The notes below the pieces were generated by a model. That model saw only the letters and a program-made list of their open reading frames with translations, searched no databases and was not told the origin of the DNA. A program made the position numbers and the translations under genes. A stretch of 30,259 nt of DNA, taken from positions 1 through 30,259 of the IMG/VR virus record IMGVR_UViG_2718217795_000001. The stretch is one strand, 5' to 3'. How positions within the stretch are numbered: position 1 is the stretch's first letter; each line of letters begins with the position of its first letter. Positions 16,547 through 25,372 of the stretch are shown piece after piece. Source of the DNA: a virus (taxonomy: Duplodnaviria > Heunggongvirae > Uroviricota > Caudoviricetes).

Positions 16547-18316
16547 ATGACCATCTCCACCGATACAACCTTGTTGCATGACCCGCGACGGCAGGCATCG
16601 CTGCTTTACTGGCAGGGCTTTTCCGTGCCACAGATTGCCGAAATGCTGCAGGTCAAGCGCCCGACCGTGCAGAGCTGGAAGCAGCGCGACGGCTGGGACG
16701 GTATCGCACCGATTTCCCGCGTCGAAAGCAGCCTTGAGGCGCGCCTGATTCAGCTCATCGCCAAGCCGCAAAAGTCAGGCGGCGACTTCAAAGAGATTGA
16801 CCTGCTCGGGCGGCAGATTGAGCGACTGGCGCGCGTTAACCGCTACAGCCAGACCGGCAACGAGGTCGACCTTAACCCCAATGTCGCCAACCGTAACAAG
16901 GGCGAGCGTAAGAAGCCGAAAAAGAACTTTTTCAGCGACGAGGCTATCGGGAAACTGGAGGAATTATTTTTCGACCAGTCTTTCGAATACCAGTTGCAGT
17001 GGTACCGCGCAGGACTGGCGCACCGTATTCGCGACATTCTCAAATCCCGCCAGATTGGCGCGACGTTCTATTTTTCCCGCGAGGCACTGCTGCGCGCACT
17101 CAAGACCGGCCATAACCAGATTTTTCTTTCAGCCAGTAAAACGCAGGCTTACGTGTTCCGTGAATACATCATCCAGTTTGCGCGACTGGTCGACGTTGAC
17201 CTGACCGGCGACCCGATTGTCATCGGCAACAACGGCGCAAAGCTGATTTTTCTCGGTACCAATTCCAACACGGCGCAGAGCCATAATGGCGACCTGTATG
17301 TCGACGAAATTTTCTGGATCCCGAACTTTCAGCGGCTGCGCAAAGTCGCCTCGGGCATGGCCTCGCAAAAACACCTGCGCTCAACCTATTTTTCAACGCC
17401 CTCCACGCTGGCGCATGGCGCTTACCCCTTCTGGTCTGGCGAACTGTTCAACAAGGGGCGCAGCAGTATCACCGAGCGTATCGATATCGATATCAGCCAT
17501 ACCGCGCTCGCCGGTGGTCAGCTCTGCGACGATGGACAGTGGCGGCAGATTGTCACCATTGAGGACGCGCTTGCCGGTGGCTGCACCCTGTTTGACCTTG
17601 ACCAGCTCAAACGCGAAAACAGCGCAGAAGACTTTAAAAACCTGTTTATGTGCGAATTTGTCGACGACAAAGCGTCGGTGTTCCCGTTCGAGGAGCTGCA
17701 ACGCTGCATGGTCGACGTGATGGAAGAATGGGAGGATTTTGCCCCGTTCGCCGATTATCCATTCGGATCCCGCCCGGTCTGGATTGGCTACGACCCGTCA
17801 CACACTGGCGACAGCGCCGGGTGCGTCGTACTCGCGCCGCCGGTGGTCTCGGGTGGCAAGTTCCGCATGCTGGAGCGCCATCAGTGGAAAGGCATGGACT
17901 TTGCCGCACAGGCAGAGGGGATCCGAAAGCTGACCGAGAAATATAACGTTGAATACATCGGCATTGACGCGACCGGCCTCGGCCTCGGCGTTTATCAGTT
18001 GGTGCGCTCATTCTTCCCGGCAGCGCGCGGTATCCGTTACACGCCTGAAATGAAAACCGCAATGGTGCTCAAGGCAAAAGACACCATTCGCCGCGGCTGT
18101 CTGGAATACGACGCCGGGGCAACCGACGTCACTCAGTCGTTTATGTCCATCCGCAAAACCATGACCAGCAGCGGGCGCAGCGCCACCTATGAGGCCAGCC
18201 GCACCGAGGAAGCCAGTCACGCCGATATCGCATGGGCGACCATGCACGCCCTGTTAAACGAACCGCTTTCTGCCGGTAGCGGCATGCAGCCTAAATCTAT
18301 TCTGGAGTTCAACTAA
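16547..18316 (+). CDS. P: Terminase ATPase (large) subunit P, 589 aa
   Basis: P2 gpP-like sequence and size; ATG with GGCGAGG RBS; TAATG overlap with Q. Confidence 0.92.
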   Translation: MTISTDTTLLHDPRRQASLLYWQGFSVPQIAEMLQVKRPTVQSWKQRDGWDGIAPISRVESSLEARLIQLIAKPQKSGGDFKEIDLLGRQIERLARVNRYSQTGNEVDLNPNVANRNKGERKKPKKNFFSDEAIGKLEELFFDQSFEYQLQWYRAGLAHRIRDILKSRQIGATFYFSREALLRALKTGHNQIFLSASKTQAYVFREYIIQFARLVDVDLTGDPIVIGNNGAKLIFLGTNSNTAQSHNGDLYVDEIFWIPNFQRLRKVASGMASQKHLRSTYFSTPSTLAHGAYPFWSGELFNKGRSSITERIDIDISHTALAGGQLCDDGQWRQIVTIEDALAGGCTLFDLDQLKRENSAEDFKNLFMCEFVDDKASVFPFEELQRCMVDVMEEWEDFAPFADYPFGSRPVWIGYDPSHTGDSAGCVVLAPPVVSGGKFRMLERHQWKGMDFAAQAEGIRKLTEKYNVEYIGIDATGLGLGVYQLVRSFFPAARGIRYTPEMKTAMVLKAKDTIRRGCLEYDAGATDVTQSFMSIRKTMTSSGRSATYEASRTEEASHADIAWATMHALLNEPLSAGSGMQPKSILEFN

Positions 18317-19362
18317 TGGGTAAGCAAAAATCCCGCAAAGCCGCTGCGCAGAAGGCCAGCAAGCCACAACACCTGACCGCCAGCGCACCGCCAAAAACAA
18401 CAGCTTTCACCTTCGGCGAGCCGGTGCCGGTACTCGATAAGCGCGACATTCTGGATTACGTCGAGTGCATCAGTAACGGCAAGTGGTACGAGCCGCCGGT
18501 CAGCTTCTCCGGGCTGGCAAAGAGCCTGCGCTCTGCTGTACATCACAGCTCACCGATTTACGTTAAGCGCAACGTGCTCGCGAGCACCTACATTCCGCAC
18601 CCGTTGCTGTCCCGTCAGGATTTCAGCCGCTTTGCGCTCGACTATCTGGTATTCGGCAATGCCTTTCTTGAGCAGCGCCACAGCGTCACCGGCCAGTTAA
18701 TCAAGCTGCTGGCCTCACCGGCCAAATACACCCGGCGCGGGGTCGACGATTCTATATTCTGGTTTGTGGAAAACTTCACTCTACCGCATGAGTTCGCGCC
18801 TGATACGGTGTTTCACCTGCTGGAGCCCGATATTAATCAGGAGATTTACGGCCTGCCCGAATATCTCAGCGCGCTTAATTCTGCCTGGCTGAATGAATCC
18901 GCGACGCTGTTCCGCCGCAAGTATTACCAGAACGGCGCGCACGCGGGTTACATCATGTATGTGACCGACCCGGCGCAGAGCGCGACCGACGTCGAATCGC
19001 TGCGCGAGGCGATGCGAAACTCGAAAGGGCTCGGCAACTTTAAGAACCTGTTTTTCTACGCTCCCGGCGGAAAACCGGACGGCATCAAAATCGTGCCACT
19101 GAGTGAGGTCGCCACAAAGGATGACTTTTTCAACATCAAGAAAGCCAGCGCCGCCGACCTGATGGACGCGCACCGCGTACCGTTCCAGCTCATGGGCGGC
19201 AAGCCCGAGAATATCGGTTCGCTCGGTGACGTTGAGAAGGTGGCAAAAGTATTTGTGCGTAACGAGCTGTCACCCCTGCAGGACAGGTTCAGGGAGGTAA
19301 ACGACTGGCTCGGCATGGAGGTCATCAGGTTCAAAGAGTACACCCTCGACAACCCGGAATAA
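18316..19362 (+). CDS. Q: Portal protein Q, 348 aa
   Basis: P2 gpQ-like sequence and size; followed by terminator and cos. Confidence 0.92.
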   Translation: MGKQKSRKAAAQKASKPQHLTASAPPKTTAFTFGEPVPVLDKRDILDYVECISNGKWYEPPVSFSGLAKSLRSAVHHSSPIYVKRNVLASTYIPHPLLSRQDFSRFALDYLVFGNAFLEQRHSVTGQLIKLLASPAKYTRRGVDDSIFWFVENFTLPHEFAPDTVFHLLEPDINQEIYGLPEYLSALNSAWLNESATLFRRKYYQNGAHAGYIMYVTDPAQSATDVESLREAMRNSKGLGNFKNLFFYAPGGKPDGIKIVPLSEVATKDDFFNIKKASAADLMDAHRVPFQLMGGKPENIGSLGDVEKVAKVFVRNELSPLQDRFREVNDWLGMEVIRFKEYTLDNPE

Positions 19363-19730: not shown

Positions 19731-19760
19731 TTGATATGGCACAGGCTACCTTGTAACAAT
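19731..19760 (+). promoter_or_regulatory. Candidate sigma70 promoter of the AT-rich cassette
   Basis: TTGATA (19731-19736), ~18-nt spacer, TG-extended AACAAT (19752-19760); AAGGTG RBS 6 nt before the ATG at 19789. Confidence 0.35.
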
Positions 19761-19788: not shown

Positions 19789-20847
19789 ATGGCAGGTGAA
19801 ACTCAAAATATTTCAGCAATGGCGGAAAAGATATCTTCCGATTTATTTAAGTGGTTCAAGTGGGAGCTTGTTGGGGTAACCAATGAAAACTTTCAGTGTT
19901 TGAAGTCTACGCAACATAAAACAAAGTCTGGAACACACCCGACTGATGTTGTTTTTTCCTATAAGGATCCATACTTAAATCGGACGATTTTTTTAAATAC
20001 AGATTTAAAAAGTTATGTAAAAGGGTCGATAACAGCAACCTCAATGCGAAACGCATTAGTCTCATTGGCTAACTCTATTGATTGCGCAGAAGGTAGCAAG
20101 GAATGGAAGGATAGATACTCTTATCAAAGTGGCTCTTCTGAGGTTAGAGGAATGCTCTTTGTATATAATCATGATGGTGAGTTTGACAGATCGTTCTATG
20201 ATGTGTTTTATCAGTCTTATAATGCAGAAACTGATAAAACAAAACGGGGTATTAACCTTGATAATATTCCTCTAAAACAAGGTCAGAAGATTCATATTAT
20301 TGAGCCGAGAACTATAAATTATTTGCAATCAATAATTACGGACTTGTCTCAACTGAGTCACAATCGAGAATTTCCTTTAGGTAAAAATTACCAGTTCTTT
20401 TACCCAGACCTATCACTTCATAAAGTTAGCGGGTCACCTGAAGAACACCCGGCAACAGTAGAGTTGTTAACGGGGCCTTTTTTGATAATTAAACACAACG
20501 ATGTTAAACATTGTGATGAAGAAACTTTAGAGTGGAAAACAACCTATAAGCATGGTTATGTTATTTATTACAATGGCGAGGGTAATAATGAATTAGAGTT
20601 TGTTTATATTCTTGATACGTTATCAAAATACCAACTCTTGGATGGAAATGAAAAGATAAGAATTAGAATTGTACATCCAAGCATTTATAAAGATGTTCGC
20701 AGTATTTTTATGCGTGCTAAGGAAACATACTGTAGAGAATGGGGTTTCGATGAACATAAAAAAACCATCATTGATGCCATTGATTTTCACCAAGTTGAAT
20801 TTACAAAACCTCACTTCAGTTCTGTTGAGATTGGTTGGGAGCGATAA
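19789..20847 (+). CDS. Cassette gene 1: hypothetical protein, 352 aa, possible PD-(D/E)xK nuclease fold in N-terminus
   Basis: ATG with RBS; ~35% GC; N-terminal pattern E26 ... PTD52-VVF ... IFLNTD72-L-K74 fits a restriction-endonuclease-like core; no Walker A/B. Confidence 0.6.
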   Translation: MAGETQNISAMAEKISSDLFKWFKWELVGVTNENFQCLKSTQHKTKSGTHPTDVVFSYKDPYLNRTIFLNTDLKSYVKGSITATSMRNALVSLANSIDCAEGSKEWKDRYSYQSGSSEVRGMLFVYNHDGEFDRSFYDVFYQSYNAETDKTKRGINLDNIPLKQGQKIHIIEPRTINYLQSIITDLSQLSHNREFPLGKNYQFFYPDLSLHKVSGSPEEHPATVELLTGPFLIIKHNDVKHCDEETLEWKTTYKHGYVIYYNGEGNNELEFVYILDTLSKYQLLDGNEKIRIRIVHPSIYKDVRSIFMRAKETYCREWGFDEHKKTIIDAIDFHQVEFTKPHFSSVEIGWER

Positions 20848-20849
20848 GT

Positions 20850-21974
20850 ATGAAAATCGGTTTGTATAGCGTTAATGACAAAGCTATGTTTGATGCTCTC
20901 AATCAAACAAAGGTGACTCATGAAGACATGAAAAGCCTTTTTTTCAAAAGAGGCACTATTATTTCTAAGGATACAAAACGGAAGACTTTAGCTTTGGATT
21001 TTTCGAAGAACTTCCACGGCTATTATGACTTTGAATATTTATCAGAAATTCTTGGATCTGTAGGGAGAAGAGAGAAAGTATCAATTAATATTGTCAACAG
21101 TGCAATTAGTTTAAGTGATATGGAAGTCACAATAAAATCTATATGTGAAGAATTACAAAAAGAGGGGGATGTAACAAATATCAATTACACCGAGAATGGA
21201 TTTGAGGTGTCAGTAAAATATGTCAAGCTGGATTTTAAAATGAGCGAGTTTCGGCAATCCTCATCTCGCGAGGCTAAAATACAAGTAGAGTTGAATGATG
21301 AGGGAGAGTATATTACGCGCTTCCCTCAGAATGCCAAGGCACATGAGTTTAATGAACTTTTGATTAAAAAAATAAAAGAAACTAATAATGATGAGCCTGT
21401 AAGTCTTGAAGAGATATCGCTTGAAACGGTCAAAGATTCAAATGAACGTAGTCGTTTCTTTAAAGAACTGATCGTTAGTATGCCAAATTACAAATGTGTC
21501 GATGTGTCAGATGTTTATGTCACCCATCCAGTATTAGAGGTTAAAAAACCATCTGAATCTGAAGATGATGAAGATGACTCGGATGAGGATGATGATGCTG
21601 TAATAGACACTGGGTATCATATTTCAAAGGCATCATTGAAAGGAAGGGGTGTCCTTGAATCACCAGAACTGGAAGAGTTATTGGGTAATGGGTTTTACAT
21701 TACAAAGATAATATGGAGTTCGGTAGTCGAAGGTTTTAAAGACTCCGATAAGTATGAATTCGAAGCCCAGTTTGTGGATCCGGATAAATGTAAGCTGTTT
21801 TCTTATCTCGTTCGTGGATGTTATAAATATAAAAAAGTAAATGTGTTTACTAATCGGCAAAATGTGGATAAGGAAAAAGAAAATGTGCTATTATTATCAA
21901 TAGAAAAAACGGCTCGAGAAATCTCTAATAGAATAATATCTTTAAATACTCTCGAGGTAGTCACTGAAAAATAA
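20850..21974 (+). CDS. Cassette gene 2: hypothetical protein, 374 aa, with poly-acidic linker
   Basis: Track start is a TTG at 20835 overlapping gene 1; ATG at 20850 follows GGGAG RBS and lies 2 nt after gene 1 stop. Run SESEDDEDDSDEDDD at nt 21552-21596. Confidence 0.6.
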   Translation: MKIGLYSVNDKAMFDALNQTKVTHEDMKSLFFKRGTIISKDTKRKTLALDFSKNFHGYYDFEYLSEILGSVGRREKVSINIVNSAISLSDMEVTIKSICEELQKEGDVTNINYTENGFEVSVKYVKLDFKMSEFRQSSSREAKIQVELNDEGEYITRFPQNAKAHEFNELLIKKIKETNNDEPVSLEEISLETVKDSNERSRFFKELIVSMPNYKCVDVSDVYVTHPVLEVKKPSESEDDEDDSDEDDDAVIDTGYHISKASLKGRGVLESPELEELLGNGFYITKIIWSSVVEGFKDSDKYEFEAQFVDPDKCKLFSYLVRGCYKYKKVNVFTNRQNVDKEKENVLLLSIEKTAREISNRIISLNTLEVVTEK

Positions 21975-21985
21975 AAGGAGTTGTT

Positions 21986-22657
21986 ATGAAAACAAAATGG
22001 TTTACTGCCAACTTCCCTGCCGGTCTCGATAGGTTATACCAGGCCATCATAAACACGCCTTTTGACAGTGACAAAGGTTGGGGGTTTAGTATTCTTTCAT
22101 ATGAAGATAAGTATATATCTTCAAAATATATTGAAAGGGTTGAGGTAAGCGAAGTAATCATAGACCCCTATGGTAATGAAACTGAGTTTAATCATTTCAA
22201 ATATGTGCAGTTTAACTTTTGGTTTTTTAAAGCTCAAGGCGGTAACTTCATTTTAATAATTGATTCTCCGCCTAGAAGTATCAAGGGTTTTATCTCCAAT
22301 GTGATTAAGGCAACTGAATCCGATTTTAATGTTTCTTATCTTGTGATTCAAATTGATGAGTTTATAAAATTTATCACGCCTCACTTCGAAAAGGTTCAGG
22401 TGCACAAGGCCAAATTAAAGGATTTGACTTTTAGTAAAAATACATCTGGCATTTTAGAACTTGAGTCTTCAAATGACGCGATAGATGAGATGAGAAATAT
22501 TTTTAAAAATGCAAAATTCACGATTGATAAAGTTAAATTGAGTGTTAAATCTAACACTGGCAATGAAACATTAGAAGTGAATTCCAATGGTTCTCTTAGC
22601 TTCTCAGAGGAGCTTTTTGATAAGATATTCTCTGCAGTTGAGCGTTTCACTTTCTAA
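21986..22657 (+). CDS. Cassette gene 3: hypothetical protein, 223 aa
   Basis: ATG 11 nt after gene 2 stop with AAGGAG RBS; AT-rich; no recognisable motif. Confidence 0.6.
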   Translation: MKTKWFTANFPAGLDRLYQAIINTPFDSDKGWGFSILSYEDKYISSKYIERVEVSEVIIDPYGNETEFNHFKYVQFNFWFFKAQGGNFILIIDSPPRSIKGFISNVIKATESDFNVSYLVIQIDEFIKFITPHFEKVQVHKAKLKDLTFSKNTSGILELESSNDAIDEMRNIFKNAKFTIDKVKLSVKSNTGNETLEVNSNGSLSFSEELFDKIFSAVERFTF

Positions 22658-22666
22658 GATAGAGTT

Positions 22667-22706
22667 GAAAAGCACTCTTAGTAAAATAAGGGTGCTTTTC
22701 ATTTTA
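22667..22706 (+). terminator. Rho-independent terminator after the cassette
   Basis: Stem AAAGCAC(tctta) / (taagg)GTGCTTT with loop, followed by TTTTCATTTT, 10 nt after gene 3 stop; near-palindromic so possibly bidirectional. Confidence 0.6.
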
Positions 22707-22847: not shown

Positions 22848-23030
22848 CTATTCGGCTTTATAGAAAATATCCGGGTCATCCTCAGCACTTTCACTGTTCG
22901 CTAAATCAGCAATAAGAGTGAGTGCGAGCTTAAGGTCTGACGGTTTGCAATTTGCAATCAGAGACACCTCTGCAATGAATTGTACACAAGCCCACTTTTG
23001 CTGAGTTCGGCTGAAATGTTCGCCAACCAT
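22848..23030 (-). CDS. Small SOS-regulated ORF, candidate Tum-like antirepressor (possibly truncated), 60 aa
   Basis: ATG with GGGAGGG RBS, about 20 bp downstream of a near-consensus LexA box; occupies the position between gene A and cos where 186 carries tum. No sequence homology asserted. Confidence 0.4.
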   Translation of the reverse strand: MVGEHFSRTQQKWACVQFIAEVSLIANCKPSDLKLALTLIADLANSESAEDDPDIFYKAE

Positions 23031-23143: not shown

Positions 23144-25372
23144 TTAACTATCAATTTTTGTTGCCGCTTCGGCTAAATCCGCAACGCGACGTAGAATCTT
23201 TCTGGCTTGAGACTGTTGTGACGGTGCTGCGGAAAATACCTCTCCTTTAGCTGTTCCACGCAACCATTTACCGTTAAAGCAACTCTTACCACCTGCCATA
23301 AGGTGCAGGGCTTCGCCCCGGCTGATGGTGATGCCGGTAGTGAGACGTATCTCGTCGATAGTTTTCGACAAAGCTGCATTTTGTTCGTCCGTTCCGTGGA
23401 TGAATTTTCGTCGTGTTGACGGTTTTTGCTTCCTCAGTCGGCTCGCCAGCTCTCGTCTTTCTGACCGACTCAGTGATTTTGTTAAATCCAATATCGGTGG
23501 ATCGCTTTCGCTTCCCGTACAGTTATTGACAGAACTCCGAGAGGGCGCAGGAGCGCCCTTAACGTCAACGGCCAAATCAACGGCACGCTTCGGCACAATT
23601 TTCCACTGCGTTAGCCGGGTTAAAATCGGGGTGCCAGCACCGACAGCGGAATCGTACACGCCACGGATGCAGACGGTTTCCTCACCATACTGGTTAAACT
23701 CGGCGCGCGGTTCATACAGCGTGCGCACCTGCAAATCATCGCGACGGACAAACGGGCCACCCTGCGCATTAACGTAACCAGCCCAGTCACCGGCGTCAGC
23801 GGCATCATGGACGGCGGCAAACTCAACGCTCAGACCGTGTGCGGTCTCGGTATCAGCGAGGCGACGCAACTCACGGTAGACCGTCACTGGCGCACCACCG
23901 ATAAACTGAAACTGACGGATGTGCCAGCGTGCCGCCCATGCCGAAACGGCGGGGGCTGTTTCTTTCAGCAGCTCACCGCTTTCGTCATCGGTTTCACCAT
24001 CAAGAGCATAGCCGTCGATATTTTTCGAAATGTATTTAGCTACATAGCCGGTAGCGCTCCCCTTTTCCGGGTCAATGGCCTCGGCATGAAAGCGAGCTTT
24101 TTTGGCTTTATCGCTTCTCAGTTCGTGGTGGTCTTCCTCCCACGCATAATCACGGATGATGAGGCGCACGCGCTCGACGTCTTCCGGCAACATGAACATA
24201 AGCATGTGCCAGTGCGGCGTCCCGTCGTGATGAGGCTCGGCAACACGTATGCCGAAAATGCGGATTTCTTCCCGGTGCAGCTTGGCGCGAATGCGCGCCC
24301 AAAGGCCGGTGAGATAGCTCTGCGTGTCCAACGGGCTGGCACCGTTCCATTTGCTGTTACGGTAGCCTGCTTTGGTGGTGGCGTGATATTTAGACGGTGC
24401 GGTCAGGGTGTAAAACTCACCGACATAACCGAGCTCATTGCAGATGTTTTCAAAACCACGGATACGGGTCATCAGCTCGCAGCGGCGTATCGCAGGGTTA
24501 GCGACCGAACCGTCGTATTTTTCAATCAGGCTGATGCGGTTGCCGTCTTCATCTTCGAGATCCAGCCCCTTGAGAAATTCACGCGTGCGGCGCTTCTGCT
24601 CACGCCAGTCGGTCACGCAGTTTTTACTCGCGTAGGCGTGTCGTTTTTTGCTGACATTTCCGACGGCAATTTGCAGATGTTCGCGCCATGCAGCCGCAAT
24701 GCGACGCAGACGACCACGCCACCACACATCGTTAAACATACGAGCGATAGCCGGGGCGATTTCATCTTCTCCGACATATTTTTTAGTCACCCGCTCCCAA
24801 TGCGGAGGGGTGACATTGAATTGCAGAGAAATAATACCGGCGCGCATGTACCAGGTGTACAGCGTTTTTAGCTCGCTAAATCCGGTGTCATCAATGTCAG
24901 CCAGTTCAGCACGAATGAAATTAGCAATATCAGCGGCCAGCAGGTCAATATCGGCGCGCGACATATCAGGGAGGCGGTTATATCTGGCGACTATGTTGAC
25001 CATGCGTGACGCCAGATATTGCATGAGCTGGGTATCAAAATGACCACCAAAAACAGTGGCCGATAAGTTGCTGTTGATACCCGCGCACTGATATTTTTTT
25101 GCGACCAGTTCAAGACGTGGTAATGCCTTTTTGCAGAAGCTGATTAAAAAGGCATTGGCTCGTTGACTGCCCTGATTTTGCTCCAGCACCGCAGCGGTGC
25201 GATAAACATCAAAGCGCACGCACTCGGGTTGGAGCGAAAGCACTTTTCTCGCATGCAGCAAAGCCGCGAACATACGGTCGCGGCGATACTGTTGGTCATA
25301 GGTAAGATATGGGCTGGCTATTGCTGACCGTGGAGCGTTCCACGGGTAAGCAAAGTTAACGCTTACCCGCAT
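23144..25372 (-). CDS. A: Replication initiation protein A (rolling-circle nickase), 742 aa
   Basis: P2/186 gpA-like sequence and size; last gene of the early lytic operon. Confidence 0.9.
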   Translation of the reverse strand: MRVSVNFAYPWNAPRSAIASPYLTYDQQYRRDRMFAALLHARKVLSLQPECVRFDVYRTAAVLEQNQGSQRANAFLISFCKKALPRLELVAKKYQCAGINSNLSATVFGGHFDTQLMQYLASRMVNIVARYNRLPDMSRADIDLLAADIANFIRAELADIDDTGFSELKTLYTWYMRAGIISLQFNVTPPHWERVTKKYVGEDEIAPAIARMFNDVWWRGRLRRIAAAWREHLQIAVGNVSKKRHAYASKNCVTDWREQKRRTREFLKGLDLEDEDGNRISLIEKYDGSVANPAIRRCELMTRIRGFENICNELGYVGEFYTLTAPSKYHATTKAGYRNSKWNGASPLDTQSYLTGLWARIRAKLHREEIRIFGIRVAEPHHDGTPHWHMLMFMLPEDVERVRLIIRDYAWEEDHHELRSDKAKKARFHAEAIDPEKGSATGYVAKYISKNIDGYALDGETDDESGELLKETAPAVSAWAARWHIRQFQFIGGAPVTVYRELRRLADTETAHGLSVEFAAVHDAADAGDWAGYVNAQGGPFVRRDDLQVRTLYEPRAEFNQYGEETVCIRGVYDSAVGAGTPILTRLTQWKIVPKRAVDLAVDVKGAPAPSRSSVNNCTGSESDPPILDLTKSLSRSERRELASRLRKQKPSTRRKFIHGTDEQNAALSKTIDEIRLTTGITISRGEALHLMAGGKSCFNGKWLRGTAKGEVFSAAPSQQSQARKILRRVADLAEAATKIDS

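Follow-up and report, generated by a model that had tools for sequence, protein, structure and literature searches.

The second gene of a three-gene cassette in a 30,259-nucleotide stretch of DNA from a Caudoviricetes virus (IMG/VR record IMGVR_UViG_2718217795_000001, positions 1 to 30,259; here called the window) is almost certainly that of Hp2 of the 3HP (Rst_3HP) anti-phage system. Because the gene, at positions 20850 to 21974, is a divergent copy of 3HP Hp2 in the canonical P2 hotspot, it is already known in kind. The best overall explanation of its product, in which moderate confidence can be placed, is that Hp2 is a GapS4b-like DNA-binding scaffold that partners the Hp1 nuclease, with an acidic loop serving as a gate.

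Hp1, Hp2 and Hp3 are the gene names of the system that DefenseFinder lists as Rst_3HP. The PADLOC profile PDLC03005 matches Hp2 at 6e-36, aligning residues 4-365 with profile positions 4-351 of 359, and phrog_6531 matches it at 3.4e-152. All three cassette genes are matched by PADLOC profiles (3.4e-65 for Hp1 and 4.9e-8 for Hp3), and their products also match three PHROGs of unknown function. Pfam yields nothing for Hp1 or Hp2 and sub-threshold matches only for Hp3, and the window Hp2 has no match in searches of Pfam and NCBIfam together. Hp1 lies directly upstream and Hp3 directly downstream of Hp2 on the same strand, an order that is kept in 30 of 30 comparison loci. Identity to the window across these loci (L002-L031) is 40-90% for Hp1, 31-81% for Hp2 and 20-77% for Hp3.

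The flanking genes are of the P2 type, with a terminase (16547-18316), a portal (18316-19362) and replication gene A (23144-25372, minus strand), and these flanks share about 92% identity with Peduovirus-like phages in which the cassette is absent. The cassette spans 19789-22657, between the end of the portal gene and gene A, with its three genes co-oriented and a G+C content of 33-37%, compared with about 55% for the phage backbone. This operon of low GC has been acquired horizontally and occupies the cos-proximal hotspot between gpQ and gpA in a P2-like prophage. Phage P2 itself has old/tin at this hotspot. The gpA-gpQ region of P2-like phages has been described as a defence hotspot, and a three-gene system without predicted domains found there protects against P1 (Rousset et al. 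2022, PMC9122126). Table S5A of the same paper gives the E. coli trio of this system as WP_024160514, WP_001398851 and WP_032238998. The trio is that of locus L001, and its products are 87%, 78% and 73% identical to Hp1, Hp2 and Hp3 of the window, respectively. In E. coli, the orthologue is flanked by the same gpQ-gpA neighbours as the window cassette. This site is typical but not obligatory for 3HP, as plasmid and chromosomal copies are also found. Rst_3HP is reported to be mostly prophage-encoded (PMC9090908), and Salmonella Typhi and Paratyphi A are reported to carry 3HP in high abundance (PMC11305592).

The 52 close homologues of Hp2 are 340-390 residues long. An exhaustive profile search gave 615 representatives of 50%-identity clusters (E < 1e-3), and the best 150 of the 615 are nearly all 340-420 residues long. 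The AlphaFold2 model of Hp2, built from 32 sequences, has a mean predicted local distance difference test score (pLDDT) of 81.7 and a predicted template modelling score of 0.70. The whole protein is acidic, with an isoelectric point (pI) of 4.98 and a net charge of -17, whereas the four-helix N-terminal domain (residues 1-72) has a pI of 8.9. This domain is the best-conserved part of the protein, with D10, K11, D15, R34, G35, S39, R44 and L47 conserved. Two alpha+beta halves follow in the model, and the homologue alignment shows a variable linker, the second in the protein, near residue 182. The second half comprises residues 183-366. Its first part contains the invariant F203 and the conserved F204, L207 and V219; its last part, the module that follows the acidic loop, is built from strands 256-259, 283-293, 301-310, 315-329 and 332-337 and helices 272-279 and 341-366. 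The motif H-I-S-K-A-S-L-K-G, immediately after the acidic loop, is the most conserved stretch of the family: H257, A261, S262, L263, K264 and G265 are invariant in the homologue alignment, and G265 is present in 100% of 192 sequences. Conserved basic residues are spread over the protein (K11, R34, R44, R73, K76, R140, R157, R200, K260 and R322).

A Foldseek search of the PDB with the Hp2 model gives CENP-N and Iml3 as the best matches, which are weak (template modelling score about 0.2), and a profile search of PDB sequences with Hp2 gives no match. In the model, residues 73-182 may correspond to the centre domain and residues 253-374 to the base domain of RdgC. RdgC is a toroidal dimer that holds DNA in a basic pore of about 30 Å and dimerizes via its base-domain sheets (PMC1885664). 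RdgC, lambda RexA, IML3 and CHL4 form a recognized group of DNA-binding folds (PMC11077077), whose members dimerize through the base-domain sheet (PMC11077077, PMC1885664). It is fairly probable that Hp2 is an RdgC-like DNA clamp. Membership of the RdgC family (PF04381) by sequence was rejected, as there is no Pfam match and hhalign gives a probability of 0.5% between the Hp2 family and E. coli RdgC.

In the original prediction, Hp2 was a two-domain protein whose N-terminal and C-terminal regions are separated by a poly-acidic linker. The run in question, SESEDDEDDSDEDDD, occupies residues 235-249 (nucleotides 21552-21596 exactly), with 234 residues before it and 125 after it in the 374-residue protein, so that its position, its length of 15 residues and the sizes of its flanks are as had been described. 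Twelve of its 15 residues are Asp or Glu, a density that was reached in any 15-residue window in only 4 of 20,000 shuffles of the Hp2 residues. The disorder and domain prediction that had been called for places the run in a predicted disordered segment, residues 229-252, which is the only long low-confidence stretch of the model. The division into two domains holds only in part under this prediction: the model has a helical N-terminal domain and two alpha+beta halves, and the loop lies inside the second half. Residues 229-252 have a net charge of -11, out of the -17 of the whole protein.

The loop was measured between the anchors T-H-P and H-I-S-K-A-S-L-K-G in 192 full-length relatives, most of them less than 50% identical. 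It is 9-53 residues long (median 25) and has a median of 10 acidic against one basic residue. Its net charge is -4 or lower in 92% of these relatives and -2 or lower in 97%, and it is acidic in the GapS4b-proximal members as well. Neither its sequence nor its length is conserved across the 192 relatives. Conservation of the acidic segment in homologues, on which the original prediction had staked its case, therefore extends to composition and not to sequence or length. In four relatives (P0125, P0090, P0097 and P0069) the loop is short and nearly neutral. The loop of another, P0055, is basic and lysine-rich (PKPKVENKNSKESKDQSKKKEF); together with the neutral loops it offers natural variants with which to probe the function of the loop.

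It might be argued that the acidic run is a flexible spacer only, its acidity reflecting solubility and slippage in GAT/GAA codons, and that it has no regulatory role. The lack of conservation in sequence and length and the predicted disorder would suit a spacer, as would the 9-nucleotide direct repeat TGAAGATGA, present twice at 21560-21577 within the run, the small in-frame insertions and deletions by which the loops of close relatives differ, and the roughly 8% of relatives with a short, nearly neutral or basic loop. Against this, the charge is maintained among relatives that are mostly less than 50% identical, including the most distant, GapS4b-proximal ones, and the loop lies directly against the motif that is best conserved in the family. 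Since acidic composition has been kept through a complete turnover of the sequence, the charge itself appears to be under selection, and a pure spacer is rather unlikely, although it retains an appreciable chance. Lying within the second alpha+beta half, the loop is an acidic, disordered element that evolves fast but keeps its composition, and not an inter-domain linker.

The likely partner of Hp2 is the product of the gene upstream. Hp1 matches the NCBIfam family antiphage_GapS4a (NF047933) at 8.6e-11 with 41.6 bits, below the cut-off of 270, and RefSeq describes its E. coli orthologue as a PD-(D/E)XK nuclease domain protein. The N-terminal motif H50-P-x-D53 ... D72-L-K74-S-Y, encoded at 19936-19947 and 20002-20010 (plus strand), is kept in at least 95% of 35 homologues, and the Hp1 homologues of loci L035 and L036 match Pfam PF26115 (PDDEXK_GAPS4). 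Judged by its sequence, Hp1 is a PD-(D/E)xK nuclease related to GapS4a. GAPS4 is a DNase triggered by DNA breaks, which needs both of its genes and forms a 2:2 heterotetramer; in its AlphaFold3 model, a ring is built from two GapS4b subunits, and GapS4a is docked on the helical domains (bioRxiv 10.1101/2025.09.07.674715).

Eight of 60 diverse members of the Hp2 family match the NCBIfam family antiphage_GapS4b (NF047934). The best of them, P0192, matches at 1.4e-11 with 43.8 bits, its residues 23-234 being colinear with positions 13-243 of the 355 in the profile, and it also matches the Hp2 profile at 4.8e-53. Since P0192 matches both profiles, the Hp2 family appears to be a distant relative of GapS4b; such homology is very probable from these alignments, and it does not amount to family membership. 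When a broad alignment of Hp2 was used for a word-indexed search of proteins, essentially the same close homologues came back, and no protein named GapS4b was among them. A tblastn search of plasmids with Hp1 returned only further three-gene 3HP variants and no genuine GAPS4 locus. The RdgC-like fold modelled for Hp2 independently fits the ring predicted for GapS4b. A weak match of P0192 to HEPN_RiboL-PSP (E = 0.002, below the cut-off) was disregarded.

In each complete locus, the gene of the third protein, Hp3, lies downstream of that of Hp2; this holds also for the loci missed by tblastn and for the GapS4b-proximal loci L035 and L036. Hp3 is the fastest-evolving of the three proteins, and judging from the sequences its divergence would fit a specificity or sensor subunit. 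The Hp3 model gives the same top Foldseek matches as Hp2, CENP-N and Iml3, with RexA in addition, which suggests that Hp3 is a second RdgC/IML3-fold protein of the cassette, short where Hp2 is long. An hhalign comparison of the Hp2 and Hp3 families is not significant apart from an 11-residue motif, and paralogy of the two proteins is not demonstrated by sequence. The only aligned segment pairs H-I-S-K-A-S-L-K-G of Hp2 (256-266) with V-H-K-A-K-L-K-D-L of Hp3 (137-147), and it is among the most conserved motifs in both families. The shared motif K-A-x-L-K, at K260-G265 of Hp2 (21627-21644) and K141-K145 of Hp3 (22406-22420), starts the second alpha+beta half in both. It may be a common dimerization or DNA-contact strand. 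By analogy with IML3-CHL4, a heterodimer of Hp2 and Hp3 is conceivable.

In the mechanism that best accommodates these features, the effector would be Hp1, as a GapS4a-related PD-(D/E)xK DNase, and Hp2 would be a non-enzymatic, GapS4b-like DNA-binding scaffold with an RdgC/IML3 fold. Most likely, Hp2 would dimerize with itself or with the structurally similar Hp3, and the dimer would be a ring or horseshoe encircling DNA or capping it. By analogy with GAPS4, Hp1 would be held on the basic N-terminal helical domain of Hp2, the putative docking site, and DNA ends or breaks made during infection would be sensed by the clamp, licensing Hp1 to degrade DNA and leading to abortive infection. The acidic loop would most likely serve as an electrostatic gate: as a DNA-like competitor built into the protein beside the invariant K-A-S-L-K-G motif, it would block the basic DNA-binding surface or the nuclease until displaced by a suitable DNA substrate. 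Of the elements of this scheme, we infer the oligomeric state, the binding to DNA, what triggers the system and what the loop does; the assignment of the loop as a gate or DNA-competitor is tentative and draws on its adjacency to an invariant lysine motif in a protein with a DNA-clamp fold. In a more elaborate version, Hp2 and Hp3, as paralogues of ancient origin, would form a heterodimeric, IML3-CHL4-like clamp through the K-A-x-L-K-G strand, with Hp1 on the helical domain of Hp2 and the loop in the basic pore as a DNA mimic, which only a free DNA end could displace, switching on the DNase. This version as a whole is unlikely.

Hp2 could instead be chiefly an inhibitor or antitoxin of Hp1, with the loop mimicking DNA in the active-site cleft until infection relieves the block, and with the RdgC-like fold serving as a protein scaffold instead of a DNA clamp. 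The intact PD-(D/E)xK motif of Hp1, the translational coupling of Hp1 and Hp2 in every locus, which is usual for toxin-antidote pairs, and the strong overall acidity of Hp2 would all be in keeping with such a role. In the related GAPS4, however, protection requires both components, and activity depends on GapS4b, which is not a mere inhibitor. The RdgC/RexA/IML3/CHL4 fold group binds DNA directly, and the basic residues conserved in Hp2 are not confined to one region. An inhibitor is therefore improbable, and a DNA-binding scaffold that partners Hp1 is preferred.

Several points weigh against the scaffold and its gate. Hp2 has no sequence similarity to RdgC, so that their relation, as seen in the model, would be structural only, and single alpha+beta modules of the KA1/TBP type are common and not always DNA-binding. 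The window Hp2 itself has no match to antiphage_GapS4b, and the link of its family to GapS4b is transitive, with scores far under the 300-bit family cut-off. GAPS4 has two genes, whereas 3HP has the third gene, Hp3, in every complete locus. The published phenotype of 3HP, from an E. coli representative, is protection against P1 only (PMC9122126), which falls short of DNA degradation or the sensing of breaks. Finally, about 8% of the relatives are without a clearly acidic loop, and that of P0055 is basic; since such relatives exist, the loop is dispensable for the fold.

The position at which translation of Hp2 starts has been annotated differently. The open reading frame (ORF) track begins at a TTG and runs from 20835 to 21974, giving 379 residues, while the ATG at 20850 gives 374. 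The original prediction preferred the ATG, preceded by a GGGAG ribosome-binding site and translationally coupled to the first gene. The junction contains, in order, the TTG (20835-37), GGGAG (20837-41), the Hp1 stop codon TAA (20845-47) and the ATG (20850-52); the spacer between GGGAG and the ATG is 8 nucleotides, and the ATG opens 2 nucleotides after the Hp1 stop, in agreement with that prediction. All 31 of 31 aligned homologues start at a Met that aligns with this ATG (MKxGLYSV), RefSeq gives the corresponding ATG as the start of the E. coli orthologue, and the PHROG and PADLOC profiles align from residues 1-4 of Hp2. In 30 gamma- and betaproteobacterial loci, the ATG of Hp2 either overlaps the stop codon of Hp1 or comes directly after it (as ATGA, TAAnnATG and so on), and a GGAG-like motif is at the same position in nearly all 30 loci. 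In the junction (20830-20847), the codons GGT TGG GAG serve at once as the tail of Hp1 and as the ribosome-binding site of Hp2, an arrangement found family-wide (L001-L031).

A start at the TTG, with the 379-residue product, would have to be reconciled with these features. Downstream of the preceding in-frame stop, the TTG is the earliest codon at which translation could start, and the closest relatives (L001, L002, L003, L006 and L009) have the same TTG. Its five extra codons, however, overlap the conserved Hp1 C terminus (G-W-E-R-stop), and their conservation is due to this overlap. In nine loci (L004, L005, L007, L010, L011, L013, L015, L023 and L029) there is an in-frame stop immediately upstream of the ATG, so that an extension of the TTG type is impossible there. 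GGGAG stands 8 nucleotides before the ATG, whereas the TTG is preceded by GAG only, and all homologues and profiles begin at the Met. The TTG start is very improbable. It is well supported by comparison of the sequences that Hp2 is translated from the ATG at 20850 and coupled to Hp1 through a Shine-Dalgarno sequence in the last codons of Hp1, and both the start and the coupling proposed originally stand on that comparative footing. The corrected start codon matters for the cloning and expression of Hp2.

The coordinates of the cassette and its elements are collected in Table 1. Promoter-like sites are no more numerous in the region than chance would give, so that the promoter in the table is a positional candidate only. 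Between the cassette and gene A, a 60-residue ORF on the minus strand (22848-23030) matches phrog_1993, of unknown function, at 2.7e-30; given this match, it is probably a genuine small gene of the phage rather than noise. Short antisense ORFs within Hp2 (21023-21184 and 21678-21860, minus strand) were set aside as mechanical. Divergent three-gene variants of 3HP occur on plasmids, at 3001-5994 of L032 (Enterobacter IncR, NZ_CP122402.1) and 3001-5974 of L033 (Vibrio cidicii); their Hp2 is longer, 415 and 403 residues, the PADLOC Hp1, Hp2 and Hp3 profiles are still matched, and one of the two lies beside IS26. In the metagenomic locus L036 (1-2865, plus strand), a gene of more than 1052 codons with a faint match to the ResIII helicase has a 3HP-like trio directly downstream; it may be a defence-island neighbour.

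Table 1. Features of the 3HP cassette in the window and of the Hp2 protein
Feature	Position	Strand	Basis and remarks
Sigma-70-like promoter candidate	19731..19760	+	Consensus scan, TTGATA-18-AACAAT with TG extension; 29 nucleotides upstream of Hp1 ATG
Hp1, 352 residues	19789..20847	+	PADLOC Hp1; predicted PD-(D/E)xK nuclease, GapS4a-like
Shine-Dalgarno GGGAG for Hp2	20837..20841	+	Read from sequence; inside conserved Hp1 C-terminal G-W-E codons
Hp2, 374 residues	20850..21974	+	PADLOC Hp2; ATG start
Hp2 residues 1-72, four-helix N-domain, basic	20850..21065	+	Model helices 8-17, 24-32, 44-52, 58-68
Hp2 residues 73-182, beta-alpha-beta4-alpha module, possibly RdgC centre-domain-like	21066..21395	+	Model
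Hp2 residues 183-228, beta-alpha-beta before acidic loop, start of the possibly base-like half	21396..21533	+	Model strands 185-187 and 214-225, helix 197-210
Hp2 residues 229-252, disordered acidic loop	21534..21605	+	Model pLDDT <50
Hp2 residues 253-374, C-terminal beta-alpha-beta4-alpha with long end helix, possibly RdgC base-domain-like	21606..21971	+	Model, pLDDT about 90
H-I-S-K-A-S-L-K-G motif, Hp2 residues 257-265	21618..21644	+	Highest conservation in the family; directly follows acidic loop
Hp3, 223 residues	21986..22657	+	PADLOC Hp3
Strong intrinsic terminator, end of three-gene operon	22666..22701	+	15-bp stem then T-run, 9 nucleotides past Hp3 stop

3HP is already known as a validated, prophage-borne defence system, all three proteins of which have so far been called hypothetical. 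The identity of the cassette as 3HP had been missed in the original prediction and is added here. The present analysis also adds a description of 3HP as a putative GAPS4-related nuclease system built around two proteins of predicted RdgC fold; no paper linking 3HP with GAPS4 was found in the literature searched, nor was this frame. The conserved acidic loop beside a key motif becomes a candidate regulatory element, and the results provide testable hypotheses for 3HP on its catalytic residues, docking domain, dimer strand and gating loop. If the more elaborate version of the mechanism were true, 3HP would be a three-component, self-gated relative of GAPS4, and a DNA clamp of the kinetochore/RdgC type would be part of an immune sensor.

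Relative to the published E. coli 3HP, the window copy has homologous genes in the same order and at the same gpQ-gpA location, but it is a divergent allele, with about 76% DNA identity to the E. coli copies. The proteins nearest to those of this copy are from Cronobacter and Enterobacter, and its acidic loop differs in both length and sequence. The proteins of 3HP and GAPS4 are similar in size, and their genes are adjacent and coupled. The relatedness of Hp2 and GapS4b covers the N-terminal 240 residues or so, and the GapS4b ring is a predicted one. Hp1 has the signature HPxD...DLK, which is more canonical than the HGxD...SxK reported for GapS4a.

Compared with RdgC (PDB 2OWL/2OWY), Hp2 adds the four-helix N-terminal domain and the acidic loop and is without an obvious tip-domain insertion. 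The role of RdgC is the regulation of RecA, while that of Hp2 is phage defence, and the ring is known for RdgC and at most proposed for Hp2. Lambda RexA, an exclusion protein of the same fold group, is prophage-encoded like Hp2. In IML3-CHL4 (CENP-L/N), a short and a long paralogue are paired on DNA, which is a precedent for a possible pairing of Hp3 with Hp2. Acidic autoinhibitory tails or loops occur in DNA-binding proteins such as HMGB1, SSB and T7 gp2.5, and Ocr and ArdA are DNA mimics. Like HMGB1, SSB and T7 gp2.5, Hp2 has a long, disordered segment rich in Asp and Glu in or beside a putative nucleic-acid-binding protein; however, the Hp2 segment is an internal loop and not a tail of the HMGB1 type, and it does not form a folded, DNA-shaped surface like that of Ocr.

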